Shown here piece after piece: positions 19,701 through 37,696 of a DNA stretch of 64,000 nucleotides. Positions within the stretch are counted from its first letter, which is position 1; each line of letters opens with the position of its first letter. The position numbers and the translations under genes were made by a program. Source of the stretch: Candidatus Poribacteria bacterium (GTDB taxonomy: Bacteria; Poribacteria; WGA-4E; WGA-3G); contig CAXXUA010000005.1 of the NCBI GenBank assembly GCA_963663765.2, positions 1,759,874 to 1,823,873 of the forward strand, read 5' to 3'. Under the pieces are notes generated by a model that saw only the letters and a program-made list of their open reading frames with translations, did not search any database and was not told where the DNA came from.

Positions 19701-21005
19701 ATGTCTAAACGTGAGGAATTTATTGCGATAATTGACGCACTCAAAATTGCTTCGCCTACAATAACCGACGAACAACGTAAGGGTTTTTTGCGGTTAGGGG
19801 TTCAGCAACACGGTCTCACTGTTGATGAAGCGACGAATATCCTTAATGCGGTAGGATTAGCTATTGGTGAACAGATAAATTACTTTGAGGTTTTGGGGAT
19901 CTCTATAGATGAAATTCAAAGTTTAGACGAATTGGCAATCGTGAACCTTGTTGAGATTGCACACAAAACACATTATAGTGCTTCGTTGCGTGCAGGTGGT
20001 CGTCCCCGTACCGATGGCAAAACAGAGGAGCAATGGCGAACACTCCTAAATCAAGCACGTGATGTGTTAGTAGACGTAGAAAAGCGACAGGAACATATCG
20101 CACTGTTGCAAAACATTGAAATTCCTTCCATTGAATCTTTTTCAGAGATAGATAATACCTCTACTGAGCAGACACAATCTATTTCGGAGCAGCATGCCCC
20201 TTCTACGCCATTAGAAAAAGGTGACATGGTTCTCATACCTGCAGGTGAATTTCAGATGGGGAGCAATGACAGAGATGCGTTCAAGGATGAAAAACCTATA
20301 CATACTGTTTATGTAGATGCTTTTTATATGGATAAATATCCTGTAACAAACGCACAATTTAAGAACTTTCTTGATGAGAATCCGCAATGGCGTAAACCGT
20401 TAAAGTGGTACGAATCGGGAAAGATTGATAAAAGAAAAATTCCCCGAAACCATCACGATGGTGAACACTTGAAACATTGGAATAAAAACGATTACCCAAG
20501 AAATGAAGCAGATCATCCGGTAACTTGGGTCAGTTGGTATGCTGCAATGGCATACTCACAGTGGATAGGAAGACGTCTTCCTACCGAAGCAGAATGGGAA
20601 AAGGCCGCACGCGGTGGTTTGACAGGTGAAAAATATCCATGGGGAAGTACTATTGATGCAAGTTATCTAAACTATGACGCATACATCGGTAAAACAACAG
20701 CTGTAGGCAATTATCCTCCGAACAATTTCGGCTTATGTGATATGATAGGCAATGTATATGAATGGTGTCTGGACGAATGGAATAAGAACTTCTATGTGCA
20801 GTCTCCACGTGAAAATCCGATTTCAGGGGATAGCATAATCCAAGTCATGAATAACTTCACTGACATAAAAACATCTCGTGTTATACGTGGCGGTTCTTGT
20901 GTGAGTATACCTCAGAACGTCAGGGTGACATACCGTTCGCGCAATACACCAAGGTATACATGCTTCAGCATTGGGTTTCGTTGTGTGATGCCAGTTCAAT
21001 CTTGA
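19701..21005 (+). CDS. J-like + FGE-sulfatase (SUMF1/CLec-fold) domain protein, paralog 1
   Basis: IPAGEFQMG, PVTNAQF, HPV..VSWY.A, RLPTEAEWEKAARGG, GNV.EWC, RVIRGGS, GFRC; FGE catalytic Cys pair absent. Confidence 0.9.
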   Translation: MSKREEFIAIIDALKIASPTITDEQRKGFLRLGVQQHGLTVDEATNILNAVGLAIGEQINYFEVLGISIDEIQSLDELAIVNLVEIAHKTHYSASLRAGGRPRTDGKTEEQWRTLLNQARDVLVDVEKRQEHIALLQNIEIPSIESFSEIDNTSTEQTQSISEQHAPSTPLEKGDMVLIPAGEFQMGSNDRDAFKDEKPIHTVYVDAFYMDKYPVTNAQFKNFLDENPQWRKPLKWYESGKIDKRKIPRNHHDGEHLKHWNKNDYPRNEADHPVTWVSWYAAMAYSQWIGRRLPTEAEWEKAARGGLTGEKYPWGSTIDASYLNYDAYIGKTTAVGNYPPNNFGLCDMIGNVYEWCLDEWNKNFYVQSPRENPISGDSIIQVMNNFTDIKTSRVIRGGSCVSIPQNVRVTYRSRNTPRYTCFSIGFRCVMPVQS

Positions 21006-21060
21006 CGTTTTACCAATTTGAATTTATTAAAATGAACCATTTATCAAAGAGAAATATCTG

Positions 21061-22365
21061 ATGTCAAAACGCGAAGAATATATCACTCTCATAAACGAAT
21101 TTAAGACAGTTTCACCGACTATATCTGATGAACAACGCAAGGGACTGCTCCGTAGGGCTGTGCAACAGTTTGACATAGACATTGATGAGGCAGTAGATAT
21201 ATTGAATACTTCCGGATTGGCTATCGGAGAGAAGATTGATTATTTTGATGTCTTGGGTCTTTCAACTGAAGAGATGCAAAGTTTAGATGAATTGGCTATT
21301 GCTAACCGCGTTGAAACTGCACATAAGACCTTGTACAGTGCTTCATTGCGTGCAGGTGGTCGTCCGCGTGTTGACGGTAGAACAGAAGAGCAATGGCGGA
21401 TATTATTGAATCAAGCTCGGGATGTGTTAGTAGACGTAGAAAAGCGACAGGAACATATCGCACTGTTGCAAAACATTGTAATTCCTTCCATTGAATCTTT
21501 TTCAGAGATAGATAATACCTCTACTGAGCAGACACAATCTATTTCGGAGCAGCATGCCCCTTCTACGCCATTAGAAAAAGATGACATGGTTCTCATACCT
21601 GCGGGTGAATTTCAGATGGGGAGTGATGACAGATTTGATTTCAAAGAGGAAAAACCCATACATACGGTCTTTGTAGATGCTTTTTATATGGATAAATATC
21701 CAGTAACAATCGCACAATTTAAGAACTTTCTTGATGAGAATCCGCAATGGCGTAAACCGTTGAAATGGTACGAATCGGGAAAGATTACTACAGGGAATAT
21801 CCTCAGAATATATCACGATGGTGAATACTTGAAACATTGGTATAAAAACGATTACCCAAGAGGAGAAGAACAGCATCCGGTAACTTGGGTCAGTTGGTAT
21901 GCTGCGATGGCATACTCACAGTGGGTAGGAAGACGTCTTCCTACCGAAGCAGAATGGGAAAAGGCAGCACGGGGTGGATTAGTGGGTGAAAAATATCCAT
22001 GGGGAAGTACTATTGATGCAAGTTATTTAAACTTTGGCGCATTCATCAGTAAAACAACAGTTGTAGGCAATTATCCCCCAAACAACTATGGTTTATATGA
22101 TATGATAGGCAATGTATATGAATGGTGTCTGGATGAATGGAATAAAAACTTCTATGTACAGTCCCCACGCGACAATCCGATTTCAGGGGATAGCATAATG
22201 GACACTGTGAATTACTTTACTGACATAAAAACATCTCGTGTTATACGCGGCGGTTCTTATGTGAGTACTCCTCAGAACGTCAGGGTAGCACACCGTTCAC
22301 GCAATACACCAAGATATACATGTTCCAGCATCGGTTTTCGTTGTGTGATGTCAGTTAAATCTTGA
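21061..22365 (+). CDS. J-like + FGE-sulfatase domain protein, paralog 2 (chimera of paralog 3 N-terminus and paralog 1 C-terminus)
   Basis: Same motifs; DNA near-identical to 22421+ at the 5' end and to 20061+ afterwards. Confidence 0.9.
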   Translation: MSKREEYITLINEFKTVSPTISDEQRKGLLRRAVQQFDIDIDEAVDILNTSGLAIGEKIDYFDVLGLSTEEMQSLDELAIANRVETAHKTLYSASLRAGGRPRVDGRTEEQWRILLNQARDVLVDVEKRQEHIALLQNIVIPSIESFSEIDNTSTEQTQSISEQHAPSTPLEKDDMVLIPAGEFQMGSDDRFDFKEEKPIHTVFVDAFYMDKYPVTIAQFKNFLDENPQWRKPLKWYESGKITTGNILRIYHDGEYLKHWYKNDYPRGEEQHPVTWVSWYAAMAYSQWVGRRLPTEAEWEKAARGGLVGEKYPWGSTIDASYLNFGAFISKTTVVGNYPPNNYGLYDMIGNVYEWCLDEWNKNFYVQSPRDNPISGDSIMDTVNYFTDIKTSRVIRGGSYVSTPQNVRVAHRSRNTPRYTCSSIGFRCVMSVKS

Positions 22366-22420
22366 CGTTTTACCGACACAATTCTGTCCAAAATAATTTT
22401 TTATCAAAGAGAAATATCTG

Positions 22421-23647
22421 ATGTCAAAACGCAAAGAATATATCACTCTCATAAACGAATTTAAGACGGTTTCACCGACAATTTCTGATGAACAACGCAA
22501 GGGACTGCTCCGTAGGGCTGTGCAACAGTTTGACATAGACATTGATGAGGCAGTAGATATATTGAATACTTCCGGATTGGTTATCGGTGAGAAGATTGAT
22601 TATTTTGATGTCTTGGGTCTTTCAACTGAAGAGATGCAAAGTTTAGATGAATTGGCTATTGCTAACCGCGTTGAAACTGCACATAAGACCTTGTACAGTG
22701 CTTCATTGCGTGCAGGTGGTCGTCCGCGTGTTGACGGTAGAACAGAAGAGCAATGGCGGATATTATTGAATCAAGCTCGGGATGTGTTAGTAGACCCACA
22801 AAAACGGCACACACACCTTACAACATTACAAGATAGTGAAGAAACATTAATAGACACCTCCACAGTACCTTTACATCTTGATGACGAGATGGAACTTATT
22901 CCTGCAGGTGAATTTGAAATGGGTGGCAGTGATAACGAAGCATTTAATGATGAACAACCTGTACACACTGTCTTTGTGGATGCATTCTATATGGACAAAA
23001 ATCCTGTAACAAATGCGCAATTTAAAGCATTCGTTGATGTGAACCCGCAATGGAACAAACCTCAAGGATTAAGTAAATTTCTACCTGCAAAACACCACGA
23101 TGGTTACCTCCTCCACCATTGGCATAGGAACAACTATTTGGAGGGACAAGCGAACCATCCAGTCGTTCACATTAGTTGGTATGCAGCAATGGCTTATGCA
23201 GAATGGATCGATAAACGTCTACCGACAGAAGCGGAATGGGAAAAGGCAGCTCGTGGTGGATTAGTAGGTAAAAAATATCCGTGGGGAGATCTCATTGATA
23301 CCACAAAAGCAAACTTCGGTAAAAACATCGGATCCACGACACCTATTGGAGAGTATCCCTCAAACGAGTTCGATTTATATGATATGTCGGGGAATGTATG
23401 GGAATGGTGTCTTGATGAATGGGATGAACACTTCTACGCATCATCACCAAGTGAAAACCCCGTTGCAAGTAACAGTATTAGCGGAATAATAAATCATTAC
23501 AGAGATTCTAAAGCGCTACGTATACTGCGTGGCGGTTCATGGTACAATAAGGTGCAGAACATACGAACCGCAAAACGTTCTGCTGCGCTACCAACTTTTG
23601 CAAATTCTAACATCGGTTTTCGTTGTGTAAAACCTATAACGACTTAA
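22421..23647 (+). CDS. J-like + FGE-sulfatase domain protein, paralog 3
   Basis: Same N-terminal module; RLPTEAEWEKAARGG, RILRGGSW, NIGFRC. Confidence 0.9.
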   Translation: MSKRKEYITLINEFKTVSPTISDEQRKGLLRRAVQQFDIDIDEAVDILNTSGLVIGEKIDYFDVLGLSTEEMQSLDELAIANRVETAHKTLYSASLRAGGRPRVDGRTEEQWRILLNQARDVLVDPQKRHTHLTTLQDSEETLIDTSTVPLHLDDEMELIPAGEFEMGGSDNEAFNDEQPVHTVFVDAFYMDKNPVTNAQFKAFVDVNPQWNKPQGLSKFLPAKHHDGYLLHHWHRNNYLEGQANHPVVHISWYAAMAYAEWIDKRLPTEAEWEKAARGGLVGKKYPWGDLIDTTKANFGKNIGSTTPIGEYPSNEFDLYDMSGNVWEWCLDEWDEHFYASSPSENPVASNSISGIINHYRDSKALRILRGGSWYNKVQNIRTAKRSAALPTFANSNIGFRCVKPITT

Positions 23648-23855: not shown

Positions 23856-25229
23856 ATGCACGAACGCGATGCGTTTATTACCTTCATCAATCAACTCAAA
23901 GCAGTCTCACCGACTATAACTGATGAACAACGCAAGGGGTTTTTACGGTTAGGGGTACAGCAGCATGGACTCACTGTTGAAGAAGCAATGAATATCCTCA
24001 ATGCGGCTGGACTGACTATCGGTGAACGGATTGATTACTTTGAGGTCTTGGGGATCTCTATAGATGAAATTCAAAGAATAGACGAATTGGCAATCGTGAA
24101 CCGTGTAGAGATTGCTCACAAACAACTTTATGCTGCTTCGTTGCGTGCAGGAGGACGTCCGCGTTCAGATGGCAGGTCAGAAGATCAGTGGCGGACACTC
24201 CTAAATCAAGCACGTGATACTTTAATAGAACCACAAAAAAGAAACGCATACTTGGATACATTGCTGTCTGAAAGCGACAGATTTGAAAGTGCTATGGATG
24301 ATTCTCCGCAAGTTATTACGGAAACTCAATCTACCGAAGCAGACACTGATGAACCGGCAATTCCAGAAGTGGACACACTACCAGGAAAGCAAAATGATCA
24401 AACGGTTATTCCTGATTCAATCCAGTTAATTACCGATGTACCCGACGATATGTCACTCATTCCAGCAGGAGAATTTCGTATGGGGAGTAATGACGAAGAA
24501 GCAAACGATGACGAACAACCAGTACATACCGTTTTTCTTGATGCATTTCTTATAGATAAATATCCAGTGACAAACGAGCAATTTAAAGGATTTGTTGATA
24601 AGAATCCACAATGGCGCAAACCAGTGAAATGGTACGAACTTGGAAAGACTGGTGCTGCGTATATCTCCAAAGAATTCCACGATGGGTATTACCTTCACCA
24701 TTGGAATACGCACAATTATTTGAAGGAACATACGAATCATCCAGTCGTTCATATTAGTTGGTACGCAGCGTTAGCGTATGCACAGTGGGTAGGCAAACGC
24801 TTGCCTACGGAAGCAGAATGGGAAAAGGCAGCTCGTGGTGGATTAGTAGGTAAAAAATATCCGTGGGGTGACATTATAGACTCAACAAAAGCGAACTTTG
24901 GCAGTAATGTCGGATCAACGATAGATGTAGGAAACTATTTACCCAACGGATACGATGTGTTTGACATTACTGGTAATGTCAGTGAATGGTGCCTTGATGA
25001 GTTCGATAGAGAATTCTATAGATTTTCCAATAAACATAATCCCGTTTCAGGTGGTAATATCGTGAATATGGTAAAAGACTTTACGAAATCTAAAGCATCA
25101 CGCGTGATAAGGGGTGGTTCGTGGTACTCAGCAGAACATAAGGCACGTGTTTCAAACCGTGACGGATTATCGCCTCGGATAACAAACAGGATCGTCGGTT
25201 TTCGTTGTGTAAAACCTATAACAACTTGA
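23856..25229 (+). CDS. J-like + FGE-sulfatase domain protein, paralog 4 (long acidic linker)
   Basis: Start placed at ATG 23856 after the GAGG RBS; same motifs. Confidence 0.9.
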   Translation: MHERDAFITFINQLKAVSPTITDEQRKGFLRLGVQQHGLTVEEAMNILNAAGLTIGERIDYFEVLGISIDEIQRIDELAIVNRVEIAHKQLYAASLRAGGRPRSDGRSEDQWRTLLNQARDTLIEPQKRNAYLDTLLSESDRFESAMDDSPQVITETQSTEADTDEPAIPEVDTLPGKQNDQTVIPDSIQLITDVPDDMSLIPAGEFRMGSNDEEANDDEQPVHTVFLDAFLIDKYPVTNEQFKGFVDKNPQWRKPVKWYELGKTGAAYISKEFHDGYYLHHWNTHNYLKEHTNHPVVHISWYAALAYAQWVGKRLPTEAEWEKAARGGLVGKKYPWGDIIDSTKANFGSNVGSTIDVGNYLPNGYDVFDITGNVSEWCLDEFDREFYRFSNKHNPVSGGNIVNMVKDFTKSKASRVIRGGSWYSAEHKARVSNRDGLSPRITNRIVGFRCVKPITT

Positions 25230-25248
25230 TTTACCGTTTGAGATGCTT

Positions 25249-25414: not shown

Positions 25415-26704
25415 ATGCAAGAACGCGAAGCTTATATTACCTTTATCAATGAGTTCAAAACAGTTTCACCGACCATAACCAATCAGCAACGTATAGGACT
25501 TCTGCAACGTGCAGTACAGCAACATGGACTTTCGGTTGATGAGGCATCTGAAATTCTGAATGCCGCGGGAATGATTGTTGGTGAAATGGATAACTTTTTT
25601 GAGGTATTAGGCATTTCAATTGAACAGATTCATGAACTTGAAGACCAAACAATCGTGAACATTGTTAAAGCAGCACACGACAAGCACTATAGAACATCGT
25701 TGGCTGCAGGTGCAAGAATACGTCCCGACGGCAAAACAGAAGAACAGTGGAGGATGTTACTAAATCACGCACGTGATACATTGATAGACACAAATAAGAG
25801 AGCAGAGCATATTGCAATGCTCAGGAAGGATAATCAAGACTTAGAAGCAGTTACTTTGCCCCTCTCCGATTTAACTGATTTCGACACAACACGTCAAGGA
25901 TTAAGCTATTACACAATACCAGATGATGTTGAAATACCTGATGGCATGGTGTACATCCCAGAAGGTGAATTTCAAATGGGCAGCGATGACGAAGAAGCAA
26001 ACGATGACGAACAGCCAGTACATACCGTCTATCTTGATGCATTTCTAATGGATAGATATCCGGTAACAAATGCAGAATTTAAAGCATTTCTTAATGCAAA
26101 CATTCAGACGTTGAGACCTGAATGGTTAAAAGAAAGTAATAAAAAAACCTATTTTGTAAAAGAACTTTTAAGGTATTGGCATAACGGTATGTTTCCATAC
26201 GGTAAAGACGATCATCCTATCATTGGTGTAAGTTGGTATGCAGCAATGATATACGCGGAATGGTCAGGAAAACGCTTGCCAACAGAAGCAGAATGGGAAA
26301 AGGCCGCACGCGGTGGCTTAGTAGGTAAAAAGTATCCATGGGGGGATTCTACCGATTCAGACACCTTCGAATCTACCTATGAAGTAGAGAGTACTGTTCC
26401 GGTCGGTCTGTCAAATGTAAATGGTTATGGACTTTACGATATAAGTGGAAATGTCTGGGAGTGGTGTCTTGATGCATACAGTGCTATGTTCTATGCAATT
26501 TATCCACAACAAAACCCAATTTCAGATATTAACAGCGTGGAATGGGTCGCAAGTAATTATCACCGAGTGAATTCTCCACGTGTACTCCGCGGAGGTCCGT
26601 GGGGGACTGAATCCAAAGGTGTACGAGTATCTCATCGTTTCAGTAGCAATCCCATTGACACATTGCCCACCTTTGGTTTTCGCTGTGTAAAGGGAATACC
26701 CTAA
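25415..26704 (+). CDS. J-like + FGE-sulfatase domain protein, paralog 5
   Basis: NFFEVLG...RIRPDG...LLNHARDTL; FGE motifs. Confidence 0.9.
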   Translation: MQEREAYITFINEFKTVSPTITNQQRIGLLQRAVQQHGLSVDEASEILNAAGMIVGEMDNFFEVLGISIEQIHELEDQTIVNIVKAAHDKHYRTSLAAGARIRPDGKTEEQWRMLLNHARDTLIDTNKRAEHIAMLRKDNQDLEAVTLPLSDLTDFDTTRQGLSYYTIPDDVEIPDGMVYIPEGEFQMGSDDEEANDDEQPVHTVYLDAFLMDRYPVTNAEFKAFLNANIQTLRPEWLKESNKKTYFVKELLRYWHNGMFPYGKDDHPIIGVSWYAAMIYAEWSGKRLPTEAEWEKAARGGLVGKKYPWGDSTDSDTFESTYEVESTVPVGLSNVNGYGLYDISGNVWEWCLDAYSAMFYAIYPQQNPISDINSVEWVASNYHRVNSPRVLRGGPWGTESKGVRVSHRFSSNPIDTLPTFGFRCVKGIP

Positions 26705-26766: not shown

Positions 26767-28122
26767 ATGTCTAAACGTGAAGAATTCATTCAAGTTATTA
26801 ACACCTTCAAGACTGTATCACCAAGTATTACAGATATTCAACGCCGCGGACTGTTGAAACAAGCGGTACAAAATTATGACCTATCGGTTGAAGAAGCATC
26901 TGAAATTCTGAAGTCTCTGGGGTTGATGGTCGGTGATGAACTAAACTACTTTGAAGTGTTAGAACTTTCTATAGAAGACTTACAAGACCAGAGTGAGGAC
27001 GCAATTATAATCAGCGTTAATGAGGCACATACGAAATCCTATAGCGCCTCGTTACGTGCAGGTGGACGTCCGCGTTCAGATGGCAGGTCAGAAGATCAGT
27101 GGCGGACACTCCTAAATCAAGCACGTGATACTTTAATAGACCCACAAAAAAGAAACGCATACTTGGATACATTTCTGCCTGAAAGCGACAGATTTGAGAC
27201 AACTACGGATGATTCTCCGCAAGTTAATACGGAAACTCAATCTACTGAAGCAGACACTGATGAACCGGCAATTCCAGAAGAGGACACACTACCAACAAAG
27301 CAAAATGATCAAACGGTTATTCCTGATTCAATCCAGTTAATTGTGGATGTACCCGATAATATGACACTTATTCCAGCAGGAGAATTTCGGATGGGGAGTA
27401 ATGAGGAGAAGGCAAATGAGCGTGAAAAACCTGTACATACAGTCTATATTGATACGTTCTGCATAGATCAATACTTGGTAACCAATGCACAGTATAAAGA
27501 ATTCATTGATGCAAACCCGCAGTGGCGTAAACCGCAATGGTTCAAAAAACATATCTCTATAGCACACCACAATGGTTCGTACTTGAGGCATTGGTCAGGT
27601 GATGACTTTCCGGATGGAAAAGATGATCACCCAGTCACTCGGATCAGTTGGTATGCTGCGATGGCATACTCACAATGGGTCGGCAAACGTCTTCCAACCG
27701 AAGCAGAATGGGAAAAAGCAGCGCGCGGTGGGTTAGAGGGAAAGAAATATCCATGGGGGGATTCAATCGGCCGTGGTAAAGCAAACTACTTCTATCATAC
27801 ACGCGGCACGACACCCGTTGGTCGTTATCCAGCAAACAGATACGATTTATTTGATCTGTGTGGTAATGTATGGGAGTGGTGTCTTGATGCATACAATGCT
27901 GAGTTCTATGCAAATTCACCCCACCGGAATCCGTATTTTAATGAGCAAAATATTGAATGGGTAATCGTTAACTACAAAGACATAAAAACTGCTCGCGTTT
28001 TGCGTGGAGGTTCTTGGAGTGTTGATGCACAAGGTGCTCGGGTCGCATACCGATTCAGAAGTGGACCCGCAGACACTCTACCGATTTTCGGTTTTCGTTG
28101 TGTAAAGGAAGTAACTATGTAA
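26767..28122 (+). CDS. J-like + FGE-sulfatase domain protein, paralog 6 (N-terminus like paralog 7, linker like paralog 4)
   Basis: Start at MSKREEF; FGE motifs. Confidence 0.9.
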   Translation: MSKREEFIQVINTFKTVSPSITDIQRRGLLKQAVQNYDLSVEEASEILKSLGLMVGDELNYFEVLELSIEDLQDQSEDAIIISVNEAHTKSYSASLRAGGRPRSDGRSEDQWRTLLNQARDTLIDPQKRNAYLDTFLPESDRFETTTDDSPQVNTETQSTEADTDEPAIPEEDTLPTKQNDQTVIPDSIQLIVDVPDNMTLIPAGEFRMGSNEEKANEREKPVHTVYIDTFCIDQYLVTNAQYKEFIDANPQWRKPQWFKKHISIAHHNGSYLRHWSGDDFPDGKDDHPVTRISWYAAMAYSQWVGKRLPTEAEWEKAARGGLEGKKYPWGDSIGRGKANYFYHTRGTTPVGRYPANRYDLFDLCGNVWEWCLDAYNAEFYANSPHRNPYFNEQNIEWVIVNYKDIKTARVLRGGSWSVDAQGARVAYRFRSGPADTLPIFGFRCVKEVTM

Positions 28123-28295
28123 TTGACAATCCTCTTTTCATCGTCTAATTATACATGGTATTATATTTATTCATTATCACCTTGTATAGTAGTACTTCAC
28201 CAATTTAAAATTGCTATTTGTCAAATCCTATGCTAAAATTCGGTTGATTAATGTAATATTAGAAACTGTTTTCAATTCCTTGTGTTTTCTTGTGT

Positions 28296-28567
28296 TATAG
28301 TAGATTTTAGAATTATTATTACACTTTCAGGTGTAGGAGGGAACTCCGATTCCCGACTATCAAGACGTTCAATCGCGATTCGGAGATCGCTCCTATAGAA
28401 CAAGTGTAAACTTAATTGTATATTTCACTATATAGTAGATTTTAGAATTATTATTACACTTTCAGGTGTAGGAGGGAACTCCGATTCCCGACTATCAAGA
28501 CGTTCAATCGCGATTCGGAGATCGCTCCTACAGAACAAGTGTAAACTTAATTGTATATTTCACTATA
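28296..28567. repeat. Tandem pair of TA-ended REP-carrying MITEs
   Basis: Two head-to-tail copies sharing a TATA junction. Confidence 0.75.
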
Positions 28568-29962: not shown

Positions 29963-30426
29963 CAGGGTTATTCAGTTTTCAAAATTATTGATAATATTTT
30001 GCTATGTCGTTAATTTTATGTGTTGCCATCTTGTCCATGTCTTTAGTCCCGTAGGGACGATATGTTTATAGAAACATGTTATCTAACCCTCTTGAGTTCC
30101 GTAGGAACGACATAGAAAAATAAACATATCGTCCCTACCAAATCAACGCCAAATGCGCGTATGGCATTTGTCGGGACTAAAGAACTGGGGAGGGTATTCG
30201 TTTTCTATAAACATATCGTCCCTACCAAATCAACGCCAAATGCGCCAAATCAACGGTATGAATGCCATTAAGGCATTCCCCGTATGGCATTTGTCGGGAC
30301 TAAAGAGCGATATTCATTTTTCAATAATCTAAAACTGATGCAGAAAGTTCGGTTAGGAAACCAAACCTGGGTATTAACTTTCAGTAAATCTCAATAACAG
30401 AAAACTCTTAAAACTAAATAACCCTG
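29963..30426. mobile_element. ISAs1-type MITE carrying AGTCCCGTAGGGAC REPs
   Basis: Ends CAGGGTTATTCAGTTTT and AAAACTAAATAACCCTG match the ISAs1 TIRs. Confidence 0.75.
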
Positions 30427-30763
30427 CTATGATAAAAAAATACTTCAACGAAAACCTGAAGTTATTTTTATTTATATAATCCTAACAATATCACAGAGCA
30501 ATGGTAGATCAACACTATATACTCATTCAACTGAAGCACTCAAAAATGGCGAAGGTATTGTAATCTTGAATTGTTGATTCAAGAAGTAGTCGTTGCACAT
30601 TTAGTTCCTGACTGGTTTCTACAACTTGTGGAGTTAGTTGCCAAACGTTACGGTTTAAAGGTCCCTATTAACAGGTCTCATCTTGCGGAATTACCTACTT
30701 GGTAATACGAACACATAAAAGATCAGATTCTTATATTAGCATTTAACAGAGAGAAATTAACAG

Positions 30764-32089
30764 ATGTCTAAACGAGAAGAATTCATTCAAGTTGTTAACA
30801 CCTTCAAGACTGTAACACCAAGCATTACAGATATTCAACGGCGTGGTCTGTTGAAACAAGCGGTACAAAATTATGACCTATCGGTTGAAGAAGCATCTGA
30901 AATTCTGAAGTCTCTGGGGTTGATGGTCGGTGATGAACTAAACTACTTTGAAGTGTTAGAACTTTCTATAGAAGACTTACAAGACCAGAGTGAGGACGCA
31001 ATAATAATCAGCGTTAATGAGGCACATACGAAATCCTACAGCACCTCGTTACGTGCAGGTGGACTTCCACGTCCTGACGGTAGAACACAGGAACAGTGGC
31101 GGACGGTGCTAAACCAAGCACGCAATACTCTAATAAACCCATTTAAACGAAAAGCATATTTGGATACGCTTCTGACCGAAGAATCTATTTTAGAGATTAC
31201 TCCAAATAACATCTCTAATCCTCAAGTGGATGTTCTTCAAACTGAACCGGAAAAATCGACAGCAGAAGCTCAAAATATTACAGCAACAGCGATTAAGACT
31301 GTCTCAAGTTCAGACTTAACAACTGTCCCTCCTGATATGACTGTACCTGATGATATGGTTTTTATCCCCGCAAGTGAGTTTCAGATAGGTAGGCAGTCAG
31401 AAGCGGGAAATGGCAGAAAATTGACTCATCAGACTGTATACTTAGGGGCATTTTTTATTGACAAATATCCTGTTACCAATACACAATATAAGAAATTTCT
31501 GGATGCAAACCCGGAATGGCAGAAAAACAGCATCTTTCAAAGATACCATGATGGAAGTTATCTCCAATCATGGCGTAACAGTAACTATCCTCGAGGGAAA
31601 GCGGAGTATCCAGTTGTTGATGTGAGTTGGTATGCAGCAATGGCTTATGCAGATTGGGCAGGAAAACGTTTGCAAACGGAAGTGGAGTGGGAAAAGGCAG
31701 CCCGCGGCGGATTAACCGGAAAAATATATCCATGGGGAGATGAAATTGATATGAGTATAGCGAATTACGGGGTGCAGTACGGAAGTACAACGCCTGTCGG
31801 GAAATACCCACCAAACGACTATGGTATTTATGACGCAGTAGGTAACGTTTGGGAATGGTGTCTTGATGCACATAACGATAATTCCACACACAGCAGTTCC
31901 AATTTAGCAGAAAACAGTGTTGATAAGATCACTAAAAACTATTTGGCAATTGAAACCGCTCGTGTGTTACGAGGAGGTTCTTGGGCAAGTAGTGAACGCG
32001 CTACACAGATCGCTTATGTTGGATGGGCTGCCCCAAGTTTTACACGTTACAATTACGGCTTTCGATGTATAAAAGAAATAAGTCTGTAA
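30764..32089 (+). CDS. J-like + FGE-sulfatase domain protein, paralog 7
   Basis: Same module; RLQTEVEWEKAARGG, RVLRGGSW, YGFRC. Confidence 0.9.
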   Translation: MSKREEFIQVVNTFKTVTPSITDIQRRGLLKQAVQNYDLSVEEASEILKSLGLMVGDELNYFEVLELSIEDLQDQSEDAIIISVNEAHTKSYSTSLRAGGLPRPDGRTQEQWRTVLNQARNTLINPFKRKAYLDTLLTEESILEITPNNISNPQVDVLQTEPEKSTAEAQNITATAIKTVSSSDLTTVPPDMTVPDDMVFIPASEFQIGRQSEAGNGRKLTHQTVYLGAFFIDKYPVTNTQYKKFLDANPEWQKNSIFQRYHDGSYLQSWRNSNYPRGKAEYPVVDVSWYAAMAYADWAGKRLQTEVEWEKAARGGLTGKIYPWGDEIDMSIANYGVQYGSTTPVGKYPPNDYGIYDAVGNVWEWCLDAHNDNSTHSSSNLAENSVDKITKNYLAIETARVLRGGSWASSERATQIAYVGWAAPSFTRYNYGFRCIKEISL

Positions 32090-32128: not shown

Positions 32129-33487
32129 GTGTCTAAACGAGAAGAATTCATCACTGCAATAAATATCCTCCGAGCTGCCTCTCCATCAATTTCACCTGTA
32201 CAGCGCAAGGGTCTTCTCCAGCAAGCAGTACAAGAACACGGTCTCTCCGTTGAAGAAGCAGATGAGATACTAAAATCATCAGGGTTAATTGTTGGAGAAA
32301 GTGTAAATTACTTTCAAGTTCTTGGTTTATCCATTGAAGAACTTCAAGATCTGGGTGAAGATACGATTGCAACTCGTGTTGATGCAGCACATCAGAAATA
32401 CTATAGCGACTCGTTACGTGCAGGTGGACTCCCACGGCCTGACGGTAGAACACAGGAACAGTGGCGAACTGTGCTAAACCAAGCACGCGACATCTTGAAA
32501 GACCCACTTAAACGTGCTGAACACATCGCAACGTTACAAAATGCTGACTGGGATATTAATAATCCTATCATTCAAAAGGATATACATACACCAAAACAAA
32601 CATCTATTACACATTCAGTTCCGGACAATATGGTACACATTCCTGCTGGAGAGTTCCAAATAGGTAACAACAAAAGAGCAAATGATCGTTATAAACCAGA
32701 AAACACAGTCTATGTTGATTCGTTCTATATGGATAAATATCCAGTTACGAACGCACAATATAAAATATTTCTTGAAGCCAATCCACATTGGCGTAAATCA
32801 TCAAAATGGCCTGAGTGGAATAAGGCAAGAAAGAGGATAATGTCTACATTGTTTATCTATAGTAAATATCATGATGGTAATTATCTAAAACATTGGAATG
32901 GTGTTAATTTCCCAAATGGCAAAACAGATCATCCTGTAACACATGTGAGTTGGTATGCTGCGATGGCTTATGCAGAATGGGCAGGTAAACGTTTGCCATC
33001 AGAAGCGGAGTGGGAAAAGGCAGCCCGCGGCGGACAGACAGGTCAAAAATACCCATGGGGAGATGAACTCAATTCAAGTATGGCATATTGCGCAAAGGGG
33101 GTGGGAGTAACCACTTCTGTAGGACAATATCCTCCAAATGACTACGGTTTACACGATATTGTAGGGAACGTCTGGGAGTGGTGTCTTGATGAATATACAC
33201 CGAATTTTTTTGCCTCTGCTTCGGATCGAAATCCAGTTGCTGGCGTAAATACAGAAAAGGAGTTAGGACAATTATACTCCTATTATAGAAAAGTTTCAAC
33301 GGATCGCGTCTTGCGGGGAGGTTCTCTGTTTACTACTTCTGAACCCATTCAGACAGCCATACGAAGTGGTCGTTCCCCCTTTTCCACCTCCGTACATTCA
33401 CTATATTTTAAAAACTTCTCTGCCAACTCTGCCAACTCTTCCAACATCGGATTCCGATGTGCATGGGATATAAAACTTAAGTCATAG
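32129..33487 (+). CDS. J-like + FGE-sulfatase domain protein, paralog 8
   Basis: GTG start; same motifs; SAN microrepeat in the C-terminal variable segment. Confidence 0.9.
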   Translation: MSKREEFITAINILRAASPSISPVQRKGLLQQAVQEHGLSVEEADEILKSSGLIVGESVNYFQVLGLSIEELQDLGEDTIATRVDAAHQKYYSDSLRAGGLPRPDGRTQEQWRTVLNQARDILKDPLKRAEHIATLQNADWDINNPIIQKDIHTPKQTSITHSVPDNMVHIPAGEFQIGNNKRANDRYKPENTVYVDSFYMDKYPVTNAQYKIFLEANPHWRKSSKWPEWNKARKRIMSTLFIYSKYHDGNYLKHWNGVNFPNGKTDHPVTHVSWYAAMAYAEWAGKRLPSEAEWEKAARGGQTGQKYPWGDELNSSMAYCAKGVGVTTSVGQYPPNDYGLHDIVGNVWEWCLDEYTPNFFASASDRNPVAGVNTEKELGQLYSYYRKVSTDRVLRGGSLFTTSEPIQTAIRSGRSPFSTSVHSLYFKNFSANSANSSNIGFRCAWDIKLKS

Positions 33488-33550
33488 ACTCTCTATATAT
33501 ATATATTTTGAGAACTTCTGCAGATTAGAATCTTAAAGGTAAATGAAAAC

Positions 33551-34915
33551 ATGTCCAAACATGAAGATTTCATTGAAGTCATCAACACGCTTAAGACACT
33601 GTCACCAACTATTACTGACGCACAACGTAGAGGACTTCTCCACAGAGCAATACGTGAGTTTGATCTATCCGTTGAAGAAGCAGATGAGATACTAAAATCA
33701 TCAGGGTTAATAGTTGGAGAAAGTGTAAATTACTTTCAAGTTCTCGGACTATCTTTTGAAGAACTTCAAGACCAAAATGAGGATGTTATAGCAACTCGCG
33801 TTGATGCAGCACATCAGAAATACTATAGCGACTCGTTACGTGCAGGTGGACTCCCACGGCCTGACGGTAGAACACAGGAACAGTGGCGAACTGTGCTAAA
33901 CCAAGCACGCGACATCTTGAAAGACCCACTTAAACGTGCTGAACACATCGCAACGTTACAAAATGCTGACTGGGATATTAATAATCCTATCATTCAAAAG
34001 GATATACATACACCAAAACAAACATCTATTACACATTCAGTTCCGGACAATATGGTACACATTCCTGCTGGAGAGTTCCAAATAGGTAACAACAAAAGAG
34101 CAAATGATCGTTATAAACCAGAAAACACAGTCTATGTTGATTCGTTCTATATGGATAAATATCCAGTTACGAACGCACAATATAAAATATTTCTTGAAGC
34201 CAATCCACATTGGCGTAAATCATCAAAATGGCCTGAGTGGAATAAGGCAAGAAAGAGGATAATGTCTACATTGTTTATCTATAGTAAATATCATGATGGT
34301 AATTATCTAAAACATTGGAATGGTGTTAATTTCCCAAATGGCAAAACAGATCATCCTGTAACACATGTGAGTTGGTATGCTGCGATGGCTTATGCACAAT
34401 GGGCAGGTAAACGTTTGCCATCAGAAGCGGAGTGGGAAAAGGCAGCCCGCGGCGGACAGACAGGTCAAAAATACCCATGGGGAGATGAACTCAATTCAAG
34501 CATGACATATTGCGGAAAGGGGGTGGGAGTAACCACTTCTGTAGGAAAATATCCACCAAACAACTACGGATTGTATGACATAGTAGGGAACGTCTGGGAG
34601 TGGTGTCTTGATGAATATGTACCGAATTTTTTTGCCTCTGCTTCGGATCGAAATCCAGTTGCTGGCGTAAATACAGAAAAGGAGTTAGGACAATTATACT
34701 CCTATTATAGAGATGTTTCAACGGATCGTGTCTTGCGGGGTGGTTGTCTGTTTACAACCTCTGAACCCATTCAGACCGCTCTCCGTCGGGGGCATTCACC
34801 TTTTTACACCTCAGTCAATTTCACAAATGTCTTACCACGACATTCAACAGAATTCGCTACTAATGTCGGATTCCGATGTGTCTGGGATGTGCAGCTAAAA
34901 TCTAAATCTTTATAA
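33551..34915 (+). CDS. J-like + FGE-sulfatase domain protein, paralog 9
   Basis: Middle near-identical to paralog 8; N-terminus like paralog 11; unique C-terminal segment. Confidence 0.9.
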   Translation: MSKHEDFIEVINTLKTLSPTITDAQRRGLLHRAIREFDLSVEEADEILKSSGLIVGESVNYFQVLGLSFEELQDQNEDVIATRVDAAHQKYYSDSLRAGGLPRPDGRTQEQWRTVLNQARDILKDPLKRAEHIATLQNADWDINNPIIQKDIHTPKQTSITHSVPDNMVHIPAGEFQIGNNKRANDRYKPENTVYVDSFYMDKYPVTNAQYKIFLEANPHWRKSSKWPEWNKARKRIMSTLFIYSKYHDGNYLKHWNGVNFPNGKTDHPVTHVSWYAAMAYAQWAGKRLPSEAEWEKAARGGQTGQKYPWGDELNSSMTYCGKGVGVTTSVGKYPPNNYGLYDIVGNVWEWCLDEYVPNFFASASDRNPVAGVNTEKELGQLYSYYRDVSTDRVLRGGCLFTTSEPIQTALRRGHSPFYTSVNFTNVLPRHSTEFATNVGFRCVWDVQLKSKSL

Positions 34916-34965: not shown

Positions 34966-36273
34966 ATGTCCAAACATGAAGATTTCATTGAAGTCATCAA
35001 CACGCTCAAAGCACTGTCACCAACTATCACTGATGCACAACGAATAGGTCTTCTACAGCAAGCAGTACAAGAACACGGTCTCTCCGTTGAAGAAGCAGAT
35101 GAGATACTAAAATCATCAGGGTTAATTGTTGGAGAAAGTGTTAATTACTTTCAGGTTCTCGGACTATCTTTTGAAGAACTTCAAGACCAAAATGAGGATG
35201 TTATAGCAACTCGCGTTGATGCAGCACATCAGAAATACTATAGCGACTCGTTACGTGCAGGTGGTCTCCCACGGACTGACGGTAGGACACAAGAACAGTG
35301 GCGGACGGTGCTAAACCAAGCACGCGACATCTTGAAAGACCCACGAAAACGTGCTGAACACATTGGAACGTTACAAAATGCTAACTTGGATCTTATAAAA
35401 CCCATCATTCAAACACCTGAACAAAAATCCATTACACTTTCAGTTCCGGACGATATGATACACATTCCCGCTGGTGAGTTCCAAATAGACAACAAGAGCA
35501 CAACTCGCCGCAAACCAAAAGCACACAATGTCTATGTAGACACTTTTTACATAGACACATATCTTGTGACCAATGTACAATATAGGTTGTTTGTTAAGGA
35601 GAATATGGAATGGGCGAAAAAAACCTCAAAGTGGTGGAGCAGACAGAATAGAATCAAGAAATACCACGGTGTTAACTACCTAAAACATTGGAACGGGAAC
35701 GACTTCCCGAGGTCAAAGGCAGACTATCCGGTTACGCACGTCAGTTGGTATGCAGCGATGGCATACTCACAATGGGCAGGAAAACGTCTACCGACAGAAG
35801 CAGAATGGGAAAAGGCGGCTCGTGGTGGAAAAACAGGACAGAAATATCCATGGGGTAATCAACTCAATGCAGACATGGCATATTGTGGCACGGAGGTCGG
35901 TGAGACCACTTCCATCGGAAAATATCCACCAAACAACTACGGATTGTATGACATAGTAGGGAACGTCTGGGAGTGGTGTCTTGATGAGTATGATGCCGAT
36001 TTCTACGGTTCTCCGGCATCACCGAATTCAGTTTCTGATGAAAACACGAAGGAAGATTTAGATTTATTACTTTTCAAGACGCATAACATTTCAACCGATC
36101 ACGTATTGCGAGGTGGAATAGAGTTTAATACTTCTGAACCGGTTCAGACAGCTTTACGAATTGGTCGATCACCCTTTTTCACCTCCGTACATTCACTATA
36201 TTTTAAAAACTTCTCTGCCAACTCTGCCAACATCGGATTCCGATGTGCATGGGATATAAAACTTAAGTCATAG
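34966..36273 (+). CDS. J-like + FGE-sulfatase domain protein, paralog 10
   Basis: Start MSKHEDF; C-terminal tip shared with paralog 8. Confidence 0.9.
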   Translation: MSKHEDFIEVINTLKALSPTITDAQRIGLLQQAVQEHGLSVEEADEILKSSGLIVGESVNYFQVLGLSFEELQDQNEDVIATRVDAAHQKYYSDSLRAGGLPRTDGRTQEQWRTVLNQARDILKDPRKRAEHIGTLQNANLDLIKPIIQTPEQKSITLSVPDDMIHIPAGEFQIDNKSTTRRKPKAHNVYVDTFYIDTYLVTNVQYRLFVKENMEWAKKTSKWWSRQNRIKKYHGVNYLKHWNGNDFPRSKADYPVTHVSWYAAMAYSQWAGKRLPTEAEWEKAARGGKTGQKYPWGNQLNADMAYCGTEVGETTSIGKYPPNNYGLYDIVGNVWEWCLDEYDADFYGSPASPNSVSDENTKEDLDLLLFKTHNISTDHVLRGGIEFNTSEPVQTALRIGRSPFFTSVHSLYFKNFSANSANIGFRCAWDIKLKS

Positions 36274-36334
36274 ACTCTATATATATATATTTTGAGAACT
36301 TCTGTAGATTACAATCTTAAGGGTAAATCAACAC

Positions 36335-37696
36335 ATGTCCAAACATGAAGATTTCATTGAAGTCATCAACACACTTAAGACACTGTCGCCAACTATTACT
36401 GACGCACAACGTAGAGGACTTCTCCACAGAGCAATACGTGAGTTTGATCTATCCGTTGAAGAAGCAGATGAGATACTAAAATCATCAGGGTTAATAGTTG
36501 GAGATAGTGTAAATTACTTTCAAGTTCTTGGTTTATCCATTGAAGAACTTCAAGACCAAAATGAGGATGTTATAGCAACTCGCGTTGATGCAGCACATCA
36601 GAAATACTATAGCGATTCGCTACGTGCAGGTGGACTTCCACGTCCTGACGGTAGAACACAAGAACAGTGGCGGACGGTGCTAAATCAGGCACGCGACATC
36701 TTGAAAGACACACGAAAACGTGCTGAACACATCGCAACACTTCAAAATAAAATTTCACAACATTCCAAACCTATCCAAACAGAAGAGGTTTTTTCCTCAG
36801 AATCGGATGAATTAAACAAGACTGAAGAGACATCTTTATCACTCTCAATAACAGATGATATGGTGTACATCCCAGCAGGTGAGTTCCAAATGGGTAGCAG
36901 CAACGAAAAAGCAAATGATCGTGAAAAACCAGAACATACAGTTTATGTTGATACGTTCTATATGGATAAATATCCCGTCACGAACGCACAATATAAGATG
37001 TTTCTTGATGTAAACCCGCAATGGCGTAAACCCAGTAAACTGAGAGATTGGAAAAAAACAAGAAGGATATTCAATCAGGTTTTAAGTAACTATCATGGTG
37101 AAGACTACCTAAAACATTGGTATGGTTCCGACTATACAGATGAAAAAGATTATCACCCCGTAACTCACATAAGTTGGTATGCGGCGATGGCTTATGCTAA
37201 ATGGGCAGGTAAACGTTTGCCAACAGAAGCTGAATGGGAAAAAGCTGCACGCGGCGGAAAAACAGGGCAAAAATATCCATGGGGAAATGAACTTGATCCA
37301 AATATGGTTTCCTGCGGTAAAGATGTTGGTAAAATCATTTCAGTAGGAAAATATCCAGCCAACAGTTACGGTTTGTATGACATGGTAGGGAATGTTTGGG
37401 AGTGGTGTCTTGATGCTTTTGATTCGGATTTCTATTCTTCTTCACCATTACGGAATCCAGTTGCAAGTGTAGATAAACAAGAGGATTGGGATATGTTAAT
37501 ATCAAAGTTTTTGGTCATTAAAACCGATCGCGTATTGCGGGGTGGTACCATTTTCACTTCATCAGATCCGTTCCATACTGCTGCCCGTTGGAGTTGTGCA
37601 CCCGAACTCACAAATTTCCGTGCTTCGTCGTATGTTGCTGATTATGCGGCTAATATCGGTTTCCGATGTGTCTGGGATTCACGGATTAAGTCTTAA
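36335..37696 (+). CDS. J-like + FGE-sulfatase domain protein, paralog 11
   Basis: Same motifs. Confidence 0.9.
   Translation: MSKHEDFIEVINTLKTLSPTITDAQRRGLLHRAIREFDLSVEEADEILKSSGLIVGDSVNYFQVLGLSIEELQDQNEDVIATRVDAAHQKYYSDSLRAGGLPRPDGRTQEQWRTVLNQARDILKDTRKRAEHIATLQNKISQHSKPIQTEEVFSSESDELNKTEETSLSLSITDDMVYIPAGEFQMGSSNEKANDREKPEHTVYVDTFYMDKYPVTNAQYKMFLDVNPQWRKPSKLRDWKKTRRIFNQVLSNYHGEDYLKHWYGSDYTDEKDYHPVTHISWYAAMAYAKWAGKRLPTEAEWEKAARGGKTGQKYPWGNELDPNMVSCGKDVGKIISVGKYPANSYGLYDMVGNVWEWCLDAFDSDFYSSSPLRNPVASVDKQEDWDMLISKFLVIKTDRVLRGGTIFTSSDPFHTAARWSCAPELTNFRASSYVADYAANIGFRCVWDSRIKS

Follow-up and report, generated by a model that had tools for sequence, protein, structure and literature searches.

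A mosaic tandem array of probable Hsp70-adaptor genes with FGE-fold heads in Candidatus Poribacteria

Tandem or dispersed paralogs of bacteria, such as tufA/tufB, Helicobacter babA/babB and Neisseria opa, undergo concerted evolution by unequal crossover and gene conversion. The immune-receptor clusters of eukaryotes (MHC, KIR and plant NLR) evolve by birth-and-death and gene conversion, and cassette-type antigenic variation (of the pilE/pilS, vlsE and msp2 type) uses one expression site along with silent, truncated cassettes. FGE-type C-type-lectin heads are classic targets of diversity-generating retroelements (DGRs), with the variable region located at the C-terminus, according to the excerpted text of PMC7159879. 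The same excerpt describes the GAP1-N2 GTPase conflict systems, which have HSP70, GrpE and DnaJ-fused components, and its account of these is without a multi-copy tandem array.

Examination of a 64,000-nucleotide stretch of a Candidatus Poribacteria genome (the whole of which is here called the window) reveals 11 tandem paralogs occupying positions 19701-37696, which we name by their first nucleotide and which sit downstream of a GrpE-like gene and a lidless Hsp70 (Table 1). All 11 reading frames are intact and have start codons, and the spacers between full-length copies measure 39-208 nt. Each paralog combines a J-like domain without an HPD motif (the adaptor), a variable linker and a non-catalytic FGE-sulfatase head of the C-type-lectin fold. 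The adaptor of the preceding WD40 gene is alignable to those of the 11 paralogs, and this gene is missing from the corresponding position in the related genome G016. An Rfam scan of the whole window gave no match. In the literature searched we found no description of a system in which a GrpE-like factor and a lidless Hsp70 are combined with as many as 13 J-like adaptors that lack HPD, lie in tandem and bear non-catalytic FGE-fold heads; the gene cluster seems to be previously undescribed. The best explanation of the data as a whole, to which we assign a probability of about 0.8, is that the 11 genes are a real tandem family shaped by homologous recombination between misaligned neighbors, and that their products would be co-chaperone-like adaptors of the adjacent Hsp70.

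Table 1. Features of the array and its upstream genes (positions within the window)
Feature	Position	Strand	Remarks
GrpE-like nucleotide-exchange factor gene	15802..16560	+	Overlaps Hsp70 start; PF01025 E 3.5e-10
Specialised Hsp70	16517..18148	+	543 aa; ATPase domain and β substrate-binding domain, without helical lid; PF00012 E 1.9e-118
Adaptor-WD40 fusion	18229..19641	+	WD40 propeller replaces FGE-like head; WD40 E 2.5e-71
Paralog 1	19701..21005	+	23856/G016_8050-like adaptor; orthogroup-b linker and head
Paralog 2	21061..22365	+	Chimera: 22421-type adaptor (354/360 nt), 19701-type linker and head; crossover interval 21421-21435
Paralog 3	22421..23647	+	Orthogroup c; donor or sister of the 21061 adaptor
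Paralog 4	23856..25229	+	Orthogroup d; linker 24153-24431 is 26767-type (266/279 nt)
Paralog 5	25415..26704	+	Orthogroup e; no recent tract detected
Paralog 6	26767..28122	+	Three-part mosaic: 30764-type adaptor 26767-27063, 23856-shared linker 27064-27342, own orthogroup-e head
Repeat-rich 2.6 kb insertion	28123..30763	.	Interrupts array; flanking genes ~60 nt apart in G016
Paralog 7	30764..32089	+	Orthogroup f; short tract 31050-31113 matches 36335 at 63/64 nt
Paralog 8	32129..33487	+	GTG start; patchwork adaptor, 33551-shared body 32378-33289, 34966-matching tip 33377-33487
Paralog 9	33551..34915	+	Start as 36335 (186/189 nt), next stretch as 34966, body as 32129; tip type as in its orthologs
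Paralog 10	34966..36273	+	Adaptor tracts in common with 32129 and 33551; 71-nt identical island 35917-35987 within head
Paralog 11	36335..37696	+	Adaptor as 33551 (312/324 nt); own linker and head
1360-nt duplicated unit (linker, head, spacer, next adaptor)	20061..21435	+	First copy; second copy 21421-22795
Conversion-like tract	33377..33744	+	Spans gene end, spacer and start of next gene; equals 36172-36528

Comparison of the paralogs with each other shows tracts of 95-100% identity with sharp edges against a background of 50-75%. The near-identical partner changes along a gene, and a given adaptor shares only 50-65% identity with the majority of the remaining copies. The initial annotation had reported that 21061 is near-identical to 22421 for about 375 nt at an offset of 1360 and then switches to 19701 at NQARDVLVD. 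This is borne out: 369 of 375 nt agree from the start codon, together with 21 nt upstream of it (21040-21435 = 22400-22795), and the switch lies inside GATGTGTTAGTAGAC (DVLVD, 21421-21435), after which 200 of 203 nt match 19701 through the linker. The junction is clean and in-frame, with a 15-nt overlap; beyond the linker, 21061 and 19701 are only 81-95% identical through the FGE-like domain. Likewise, 26767 has the 30764-type N-terminus proposed for it (287 of 297 nt as far as SLRAGG) and, from LRAGG, the 23856-type linker. The reported near-identity of 32129 and 33551 extends over 896 of 912 nt (32378-33289 = 33800-34711, offset 1422) and includes 710 nt at 99.7%; the accompanying description of their C-terminal segments as unrelated is too strong, since these are homologous, though diverged (tip dS 1.23). 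The tip and downstream spacer of 32129 match 34966 (33377-33544 = 36172-36328) and the start of 33551 matches 36335 (33549-33744 = 36333-36528, 98.5%), both as previously noted. These two items in fact constitute a single contiguous tract of ~370 nt across the intergenic spacer. The tracts include non-coding spacers.

The mosaicism greatly exceeds what chance would produce. In a homoplasy test, the PHI statistic was 0.573, as against 0.713 +/- 0.004 in permuted data, and none of 1000 permutations was as low. Rather than being congruent, as expected without mosaicism, the segment trees disagree, with AU tests rejecting 9 of 13 cross-segment groupings and not rejecting the remaining 4 (the groups were chosen after the identity profile was known). 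Furthermore, dS within single gene pairs shifts from 0-0.07 to >1, a jump of more than 10-fold, which places the mosaic pattern at silent sites. If there had been no recombination, the similar segments would be slow ones under strong constraint and the divergent segments fast ones, and the adaptor indeed contains invariant motifs; however, near-identity at synonymous sites that reaches into non-coding spacers, and an identity partner that switches along genes whose adaptors are so modestly alike in most comparisons, make this account scarcely credible. Incongruent segment phylogenies, silent-site tracts and copy-number variation among relatives, which mark a tandem multigene family subject to unequal crossover and gene conversion, are all present. 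Recombination between paralogs is strongly supported in both of the forms first suggested, with unequal crossover fitting the 19701/21061/22421 triple and gene conversion the short tracts.

Within this triple, 21061 bears the signature of one unequal crossover in the 15-nt identical stretch at the adaptor end (DVLVD), which duplicated the 1360-nt unit and generated the chimeric 21061 from a 22421 adaptor and a 19701 linker and head. A single crossover as the sole event was rejected, given the unequal dS along the 19701/21061 unit (linker 0.025, head 0.32). Other tracts, 40-900 nt in length, resemble gene conversions of differing ages, one of which crosses an intergenic spacer. With a tract dS of 0-0.12 as against an ortholog dS of 0.43-0.8, the tracts postdate the divergence from the closest species sampled. 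The claim that breakpoints lie at module boundaries is only partly upheld: 7 of 27 fall in three boundary windows that together make up 10% of the aligned length (binomial test, p 0.017; individual breakpoints are not independent), but the other 20 are inside modules, mostly within the adaptor, where conserved motifs such as SLRAGG supply the homology that allows exchange. In its sharp-edged, homology-dependent tracts, chimeric genes, copy-number change between relatives and breakpoints in conserved stretches, the array resembles the paralogs known for concerted evolution. It differs from them in that the N-terminal adaptor is homogenised while the C-terminal heads remain old, distinct lineages, and in that its genes appear to encode cytoplasmic partners of a chaperone, as opposed to surface antigens or duplicated housekeeping proteins.

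Mosaics could also be assembly chimeras, with paralogs or strain variants misjoined at shared repeats in a genome that appears to be assembled from a mixed population. Short-read Logan contigs from four runs stop at shared-tract edges (e.g. 20090 and 32248) and none bridges a junction; moreover, the homologous proteins derive from metagenome-assembled genomes. Against this, all 11 frames are open, the 21061 junction is as clean as described above, and the array is carried on a 1.82 Mb contig. Of the 9 arrays compared, 8 contain near-identical partial tracts: G000 and all of the 8 others except G002. The others with tracts include all six from one-contig assemblies, although the tract in G005 is merely 83 nt. 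The mosaic directions also agree with the cross-species trees and with G016. We accordingly consider misassembly improbable. Two runs from other studies have bins without cover at 20268-21535 and 32314-34215 and are unusable as evidence.

Related genomes, in which the homologues bear the label Candidatus Poribacteria, have kept this layout and contain 1-13 copies. Array loci from 9 other species keep the sulfatase-GrpE-Hsp70-array-GH95 synteny with 4-12 copies, and in 8 of 9 related loci a GrpE-like gene is found upstream of Hsp70 and is itself immediately preceded by a sulfatase gene. Adjacency of the adaptors to Hsp70 holds in 8 of 9 in-genus loci, and each of the 4 genomes examined from two other genera has adaptor genes adjoining the Hsp70 ortholog; in G005, by contrast, a distance of ~600 kb separates the main array from Hsp70. 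The system is confined mainly to one family of apparent Poribacteria. Its Hsp70 is 88-96% identical across 8 species (dN/dS 0.046 against G016), and relatives carry a separate DnaK elsewhere, which is 640-670 aa long and 43% identical to the array Hsp70. The head tree yields cross-species orthogroups, and the adaptor tree pairs neighbors within one genome. In G016, 21061 is without a counterpart, the ortholog of 23856 has a 19701-type and not a 26767-type linker, and the ortholog of 26767 has a 23856-type adaptor. Orthologous heads carry differing adaptor/linker/head combinations among related species.

An AF2 model of the adaptor (pLDDT 85.5) recovered mostly J-domains as top Foldseek matches (highest probability 0.99, highest TMt 0.71), though with E-values of 0.27-2. 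Profile matches were weak and below the cut-off (HscB HMM, E 2.8e-4; DnaJ Pfam, E 0.11), and a search of PDB sequences with the adaptor profile gave nothing meaningful (best E 1.5, a designed repeat protein). None of 74 aligned adaptors has the HPD tripeptide; the loop in its place reads SLRAGGxPRxDG, with S95, L96, G99, R103 and D105 invariant. The alignment of the array Hsp70 to DnaK ends at around residue 504. In light of the gene adjacency, we propose that the lidless Hsp70 and its GrpE-like exchange factor are served by each of these proteins as a co-chaperone-like adaptor, in which the J-like domain, lacking HPD and having an invariant SLRAGG..R.DG loop, would dock on Hsp70, and the FGE/C-type-lectin-fold head, or the WD40 propeller, would bind a specific target. 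As all copies would share the same Hsp70, adaptor exchange would be tolerated and the adaptors could be kept homogenised. This arrangement is comparable to J-domain protein networks (e.g. HscB-HscA), where one Hsp70 serves many J-proteins that differ in their client-binding domains, with a putative J-like helical domain beside a dedicated Hsp70 and GrpE and, judging from adjacency, one chaperone with many adaptors that differ in their C-terminal domain. It departs from them in the replacement of HPD by the invariant loop, an extra three-helix N-terminal bundle, an Hsp70 without a lid, and adaptors that are tandemly arrayed and recombining. With the GAP1-N2 systems, as excerpted from PMC7159879, it shares HSP70 and GrpE genes linked to variable ligand-binding proteins, with FGS heads present in related systems; unlike these, it has no GTPase, FNIII-repeat, vWA or MoxR gene among the 10 neighboring frames scanned.

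The FGE-sulfatase domain (PF03781) was detected in 7 of 7 paralogs scanned (E 4.9e-55 to 9e-65), a genome scan found all 11, and the head model matches FGE structures at TM 0.66-0.69. These matches, with FGEs as the closest folds, and the sulfatase gene that immediately precedes GrpE in 8 of 9 related loci, could mean that the paralogs function as formylglycine-generating enzymes and that each matures some of the many sulfatases of the organism, with Hsp70 holding unfolded sulfatases and recombination shuffling enzyme specificity. However, FGEs possess a cysteine pair (C-x4-C after GGS) that we take to be catalytic, in agreement with the entry titles 'C336S mutant', 'C341S mutant' and 'bound to Cu(I)'. 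When 19701 is aligned to 5nxl, 6s07 and 2q17, the LCHESYC segment is replaced, with a 3-residue gap, and the cysteine pair is absent; by a crude pattern test, 0 of 33 genomic FGE-sulfatase frames have C-x(3-5)-C after GGS. Some members, moreover, have WD40 heads instead. An enzymatic role is therefore very unlikely.

The heads share a non-catalytic FGE-type fold with DGR variable proteins such as TvpA (PDB 2y3c; E 1.3e-12, TM 0.57-0.59). As in the DGR-diversified FGE/C-type-lectin proteins (TvpA, and the FGS domains of cyanobacterial vWA-MoxR ternary systems in the excerpt of PMC7159879), the head forms the C-terminal part of a fusion with other modules and variability peaks C-terminally before GFRC: lineages differ most in the RGGS-to-GFRC tip, with 22% identity between orthogroups. 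Given that this fold is a classic DGR target in that excerpt, and that A/T differences are enriched among tract mismatches (15 of 36), a programmed process, either a DGR or cassette-type antigenic variation, might rewrite the binding tips to follow changing targets. Several observations tell against this. An RVT_1 search of the 97.8%-complete genome gave no match, and a DGR is unlikely because no reverse transcriptase was found. The 36 mismatches, 29 of which involve A, occur in either direction, with most of them at third codon positions and within the adaptor rather than the tip; this spectrum is unlike that of a template/variable repeat pair, which would differ only at template adenines. 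Within orthogroups the tips are conserved across species (58% identity), and dN/dS is <1. Nor does cassette-type variation fit: 11 of 11 copies are full-length genes with start codons, and hence there are no silent cassettes. We regard programmed diversification of either kind as having very little likelihood. Whereas DGR systems use a reverse transcriptase, diversity here resides in a panel of 4-13 germline genes whose tips are kept from one species to another, and the apparent partner is Hsp70/GrpE rather than the MoxR/vWA of the cyanobacterial FGS systems in the excerpt of PMC7159879.

The initial annotation further supposed that shuffling of adaptor, linker and binding-site segments generates new specificities. 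In favor of this, the tip swap in 32129 (core from 33551, tip from 34966) gives a new core/tip combination, and a similar case occurs in G022; these are the only two. On the other hand, most tracts move the adaptor or linker and, because these are shared parts, should leave head binding unchanged; pairwise dN/dS is 0.04-0.6 for segments where it is computable, and tips are kept across species. Most exchange re-assorts shared adaptors and linkers around old head lineages. The heads would be old, conserved lineages, with recombination making a new one just occasionally, as in 32129.

A bolder and rather doubtful reading is that the locus is a germline recognition repertoire, in which the lidless Hsp70/GrpE is aimed at many intracellular targets, foreign or host-derived, by interchangeable HPD-less J-like adaptors with lectin-fold or WD40 heads, while tandem recombination creates, re-pairs and occasionally rewires heads (32129, G022). 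If so, bacteria would have a counterpart of the birth-and-death evolution seen in the immune-receptor clusters of animals and plants, and the fold that DGRs diversify would have an alternative route to diversity that needs no retroelement. Like MHC, KIR and plant NLR clusters, the array is a tandem panel of putative binding proteins with copy-number variation between relatives and mosaic genes; unlike them, it shows no sign of positive selection in pairwise dN/dS and no evidence of an immune role. The recombination process itself is textbook, but the locus is an unusually clean natural record of modular-protein re-assortment, with a crossover junction resolved to 15 nt, a conversion tract over a gene boundary and module combinations that differ between sister species. 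Should the adaptors steer Hsp70 to specific targets, the array would offer a simple bacterial model for how a chaperone specificity panel evolves, and would reveal a role for many 'FGE family' genes of sponge symbionts. PADLOC returned no significant defence-family match for the paralogs, the GrpE or the Hsp70; its HEAT-ARM_XIII model did match the WD40 part (E 6.3e-21), as is common for repeat proteins.

Examination of the forward strand between 15.8 and 37.7 kb of the window reveals a GrpE-like gene, an Hsp70 gene, a WD40-headed gene and then eleven FGE-headed genes, flanked by a sulfatase gene upstream and a GH95 gene downstream (see table). In the eleven paralogs, named here by their start positions, an N-terminal adaptor domain is followed by a polar linker, highly variable in length and sequence, and by an FGE-like head comprising a core and a C-terminal tip. 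All 12 copies of the adaptor in the genome lie at this locus, as do 11 of the 33 genomic occurrences of PF03781. The Hsp70 aligns with DnaK over the ATPase and beta substrate-binding domains, and its C-terminal end falls where the helical lid would start. Spacers among the paralogs measure 39-208 nt, except for a repeat-rich gap of 2.6 kb (28123-30763). Two transposase-like genes (DDE_Tnp_1 and a member of the UPF0236 family) occupy 10442-12971, and the sulfatase-GrpE-Hsp70 block follows a few kb downstream.

Genes of the Hsp70-linked array and their profile matches
Feature	Position (nt)	Strand	Profile match
GrpE-like gene	15802-16560	+	PF01025, E 3.5e-10
Hsp70 gene	16517-18148	+	PF00012, E 1.9e-118
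Adaptor (140-residue N-terminal domain) joined to WD40 propeller	18229-19641	+	
Eleven adaptor-linker-PF03781 genes	starts 19701, 21061, 22421, 23856, 25415, 26767, 30764, 32129, 33551, 34966, 36335	+	

The initial annotation had described these paralogs as recombinational mosaics, and sliding-window identity, strict tract searches and copying-model segmentation of a codon alignment of all eleven (1488 columns) bear out the individual matches on which this rested. Gene 21061 agrees with 22421 at 369 of the first 375 nt from the start codon, and over a further 21 nt upstream, before switching to the 19701 type at 200 of 203 nt through the linker, beyond which its identity to 19701 is only 81-95%. 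Gene 26767 is of the 30764 type at 287 of 297 nt and, from SLRAGG on, of the 23856 type at 266 of 279 nt, with the junction at 27055-27067. Genes 32129 and 33551 have 896 of 912 nt in common, including 710 nt at 99.7% identity, and diverge in the last ~200 nt, where a further junction lies at 33290-33440. The tip and downstream spacer of 32129 match their 34966 counterparts and the start of 33551 matches that of 36335, these being in fact one contiguous tract (near-identical segment) of ~370 nt that spans the spacer (33377-33744 = 36172-36528). In this second block, 32129 and 33551 have a common body, and the stretch that joins them (tip, spacer and next start) has given way to the 34966/36335 junction. 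Three more pairs, 30764/36335, 33551/34966 and 34966/36335, are connected by short tracts of 40-220 nt. Inside the exchanged 32129 tip (33400-33460) there is a small slippage event, a 9-nt tandem duplication relative to 34966 (TCTGCCAAC twice, encoding SAN SAN). A/T transversions account for 15 (42%) of the 36 mismatches within tracts (20061-36684), some of them counted in more than one pair, as against 16-28% when diverged paralogs are paired and 9% for orthologous Hsp70 genes; the mismatches run in both directions and are mostly at third codon positions, and the excess is weak.

Outside the tracts, identity between paralogs falls to a background of 50-75%. The PHI test (668 informative sites) gave a statistic of 0.573 versus 0.713 +/- 0.004 under permutation, with none of 1000 permutations as low, and trees of five segments disagree with one another. 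AU tests were applied to 13 groupings, each recovered as sisters in a different segment, and rejected 9 of them, including {19701,21061} in the adaptor (p 1e-56) and, in the head, both {21061,22421} (p 8e-5) and {33551,36335} (p 8e-7), although the p-values are generous, the groupings having been chosen from the identity profile; the four retained (p 0.09, 0.12, 0.13 and 0.19) are all on short or gappy segments. Recombination between paralogs, as inferred earlier, is settled by synonymous divergence, because within single pairs dS shifts from 0-0.07 to above 1: for 21061/22421 it is 0.067 in the adaptor versus 1.7 in the head, and for 32129/33551 it is 0 over columns 286-1020 versus 1.23 in the tip. 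Differences in protein constraint among modules might likewise yield uneven identity, an explanation ruled out by this dS pattern; non-coding spacers also lie inside tracts. The tracts are all at dS 0-0.12, lower than the 0.43-0.78 found for GrpE, Hsp70, sulfatase and orthologous heads between this genome and the nearest sampled species (G016).

The 19701/21061/22421 triple has the arrangement that a single unequal crossover classically leaves behind. Positions 20061-21435 hold a 1360-nt unit, made up of linker, head, spacer and the adaptor of the next gene, and a second copy occupies 21421-22795. The copies overlap by 15 nt, GATGTGTTAGTAGAC (DVLVD), identical in all three genes; 22421-specific sites lie directly upstream of this overlap and 19701-specific sites directly downstream, and the resulting gene order is Nx-Cx, Ny-Cx, Ny-Cy. 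A single crossover is insufficient as the sole event, given the unequal dS of linker (0.025), adaptor (0.067) and head (0.32). The duplication may be older, with its flanks re-homogenised at a later time; alternatively, it may have been followed by several conversions.

The proposed placement of breakpoints at module boundaries holds only in part. Three windows (adaptor/linker, linker/head and core/tip) that make up 10% of the columns contain 7 of the 27 segmentation breakpoints (binomial p 0.017, qualified by the non-independence of breakpoints common to partners). The other 20 lie within modules, chiefly at conserved adaptor motifs. The simplest interpretation places tract ends where paralogs are similar enough to pair.

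Structure comparison indicates that the head adopts the FGE fold, with TM scores of 0.66-0.69 against FGEs and 0.57-0.59 against TvpA, a DGR variable protein. The two-cysteine segment of solved FGEs is replaced in the head, with a gap, and the cysteine pair, which we take to be catalytic (structure entry titles alone agree), was found in none of the 33 FGE-sulfatase frames genome-wide. Sulfatase genes are nevertheless present in the genome, and their products are presumably matured by another route. The tip, which runs from RGGS to GFRC, is the counterpart of the region that varies at the C terminus of DGR targets (PMC7159879); a profile search of the genome (97.8% complete) gave no RVT_1 match. 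The tip is the part that most distinguishes head lineages, with 22% identity between orthogroups (head lineages common to several species) versus 51% for the core. Within a lineage, tip identity across species is 58%, and some groups are nearly invariant; tip sequence and length vary only in the 32129-36335 group. In the adaptor model, which is a confident one (pLDDT 85.5), three helices at the N terminus precede a helical domain whose top structural matches are almost exclusively J-domains, with E-values that are weak. At the sequence level, HscB and DnaJ gave weak matches too, and the HPD motif is absent from the adaptor, the equivalent loop being an invariant SLRAGG..R.DG.

Of 24 other genomes in the genus, 18 carry the adaptor (4-11 copies), whereas a first draw of 16 genomes from the order's other genera contained none. 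Across the phylum, 61 of 176 genomes have it (1-13 copies), nearly all in one family (58 of its 111 other genomes). Named homologues are labelled Candidatus Poribacteria, and the label of one sequencing run that contains part of this stretch is sponge metagenome. Arrays from nine species keep the order sulfatase-GrpE-Hsp70-array-GH95, with 4-12 copies counting the present genome and WD40-headed members at varying positions; as an exception, the main array of G005 lies ~600 kb from Hsp70, which retains one adjacent adaptor gene. Adaptor genes also adjoin Hsp70 directly in four genomes from two further genera, where the orthologous Hsp70 is 80-86% identical.

A head tree (65 rows) resolves about nine orthogroups spanning species, and head lineages therefore predate the genus. 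In the adaptor tree (74 rows) neighbours of one genome often pair: 21061 with 22421, 26767 with 30764, and pairs in G001, G021, G022, G024 and G020/G003, some of which join a WD40-headed and an FGE-headed gene. With minimum values of 80 nt in length and 94% in identity, partial tracts are present in this genome and in seven of the eight other arrays scanned (G016 stood outside the scan), with none in G002; mapped onto genes, most genic tracts fall in the adaptor. Two neighbours in G022 have a common adaptor and linker (602 nt, 99.8%) and a common tip and spacer (226 nt, 99.6%) around different cores, repeating the 32129/34966 pattern. In G016 neither the WD40 gene nor the 21061 duplicate is present; the 23856 ortholog carries a 19701-type linker, and the 26767 ortholog, with an adaptor of the 23856 type, is directly followed by the 30764 ortholog. 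Module re-assortment is thus recurrent, recent and present in independent assemblies, and this recurrence is our main argument against an assembly artefact.

Two orthologs in G016 carry lesions: that of 19701 (L015, C116, ~5426-6733) has an in-frame TAG right after the adaptor, and that of 26767 (L002, C289, ~90-1440) shifts frame between adaptor and linker. They are either decaying copies or assembly errors. In some relatives the adaptor begins much longer frames of 739-1271 aa (G011:C35:11820, G007:C1:3489216, G089:C45:6766 and G109:C7:294130), and two adaptor-bearing homologues (P0071 and P0098) have a precomputed Pfam match to PF08334, not PF03781; hence the adaptor is combined with further kinds of C-terminal domain.

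Together these data show unequal crossover and gene conversion at work in the evolution of this tandem family, with frequent exchange of adaptor and linker and rare exchange of heads. We propose that the adaptor docks each protein on the adjacent specialised Hsp70, a strongly constrained protein (dN/dS 0.046), and that the head would bring a specific target. Adaptor exchange would be tolerated because all copies must fit one Hsp70, and the interface would stay uniform. The process appears to be concerted evolution rather than the creation of new specificity that was first suggested. New core/tip combinations do occasionally arise: 32129 unites a 33551 core with a 34966 tip, 33551 itself retaining the tip type of its G022 and G002 orthologs. 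An adaptive reading is unproven: mostly adaptor and linker are exchanged, and pairwise dN/dS, where computable (dS is saturated in many segments), is 0.04-0.6, with its maxima in linkers (0.60) and tips (0.49), and hence gives no sign of positive selection.

The recombination process is that of many tandem families, and the architecture resembles J-protein networks and the HSP70/GrpE/DnaJ-linked and FGS-bearing conflict systems of PMC7159879. Unlike in both, the adaptors here are without the HPD motif, form a tandem panel and accompany an Hsp70 without a lid. No GTPase, vWA or MoxR partner was detected among 10 neighbouring frames scanned, and the literature searched, mostly at abstract level, contained no description of the array system.

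A palindromic repeat with a unit of ~80 nt, the two ~24-nt arms of which could form a hairpin, is present in 9.4 tandem copies at 40413-41177, just downstream of the GH95 gene, and in scattered copies in the longer array spacers (25240-25385, 28296-28572 and 29638-29731). Its 40-nt half has ~120 copies in the genome at up to 4 mismatches. It has no Rfam match, and a CRISPR array is ruled out by the fully conserved period. The 2.6-kb gap that holds some of these repeats is AT-rich (GC 0.37), and its one frame of 113 aa (28794-29135) has no Pfam or PADLOC match. In G016 the gap is absent and the two flanking genes are ~60 nt apart. Over 28-30.4 kb, metagenome contigs reach a depth 10- to 100-fold higher than in the surrounding sequence.
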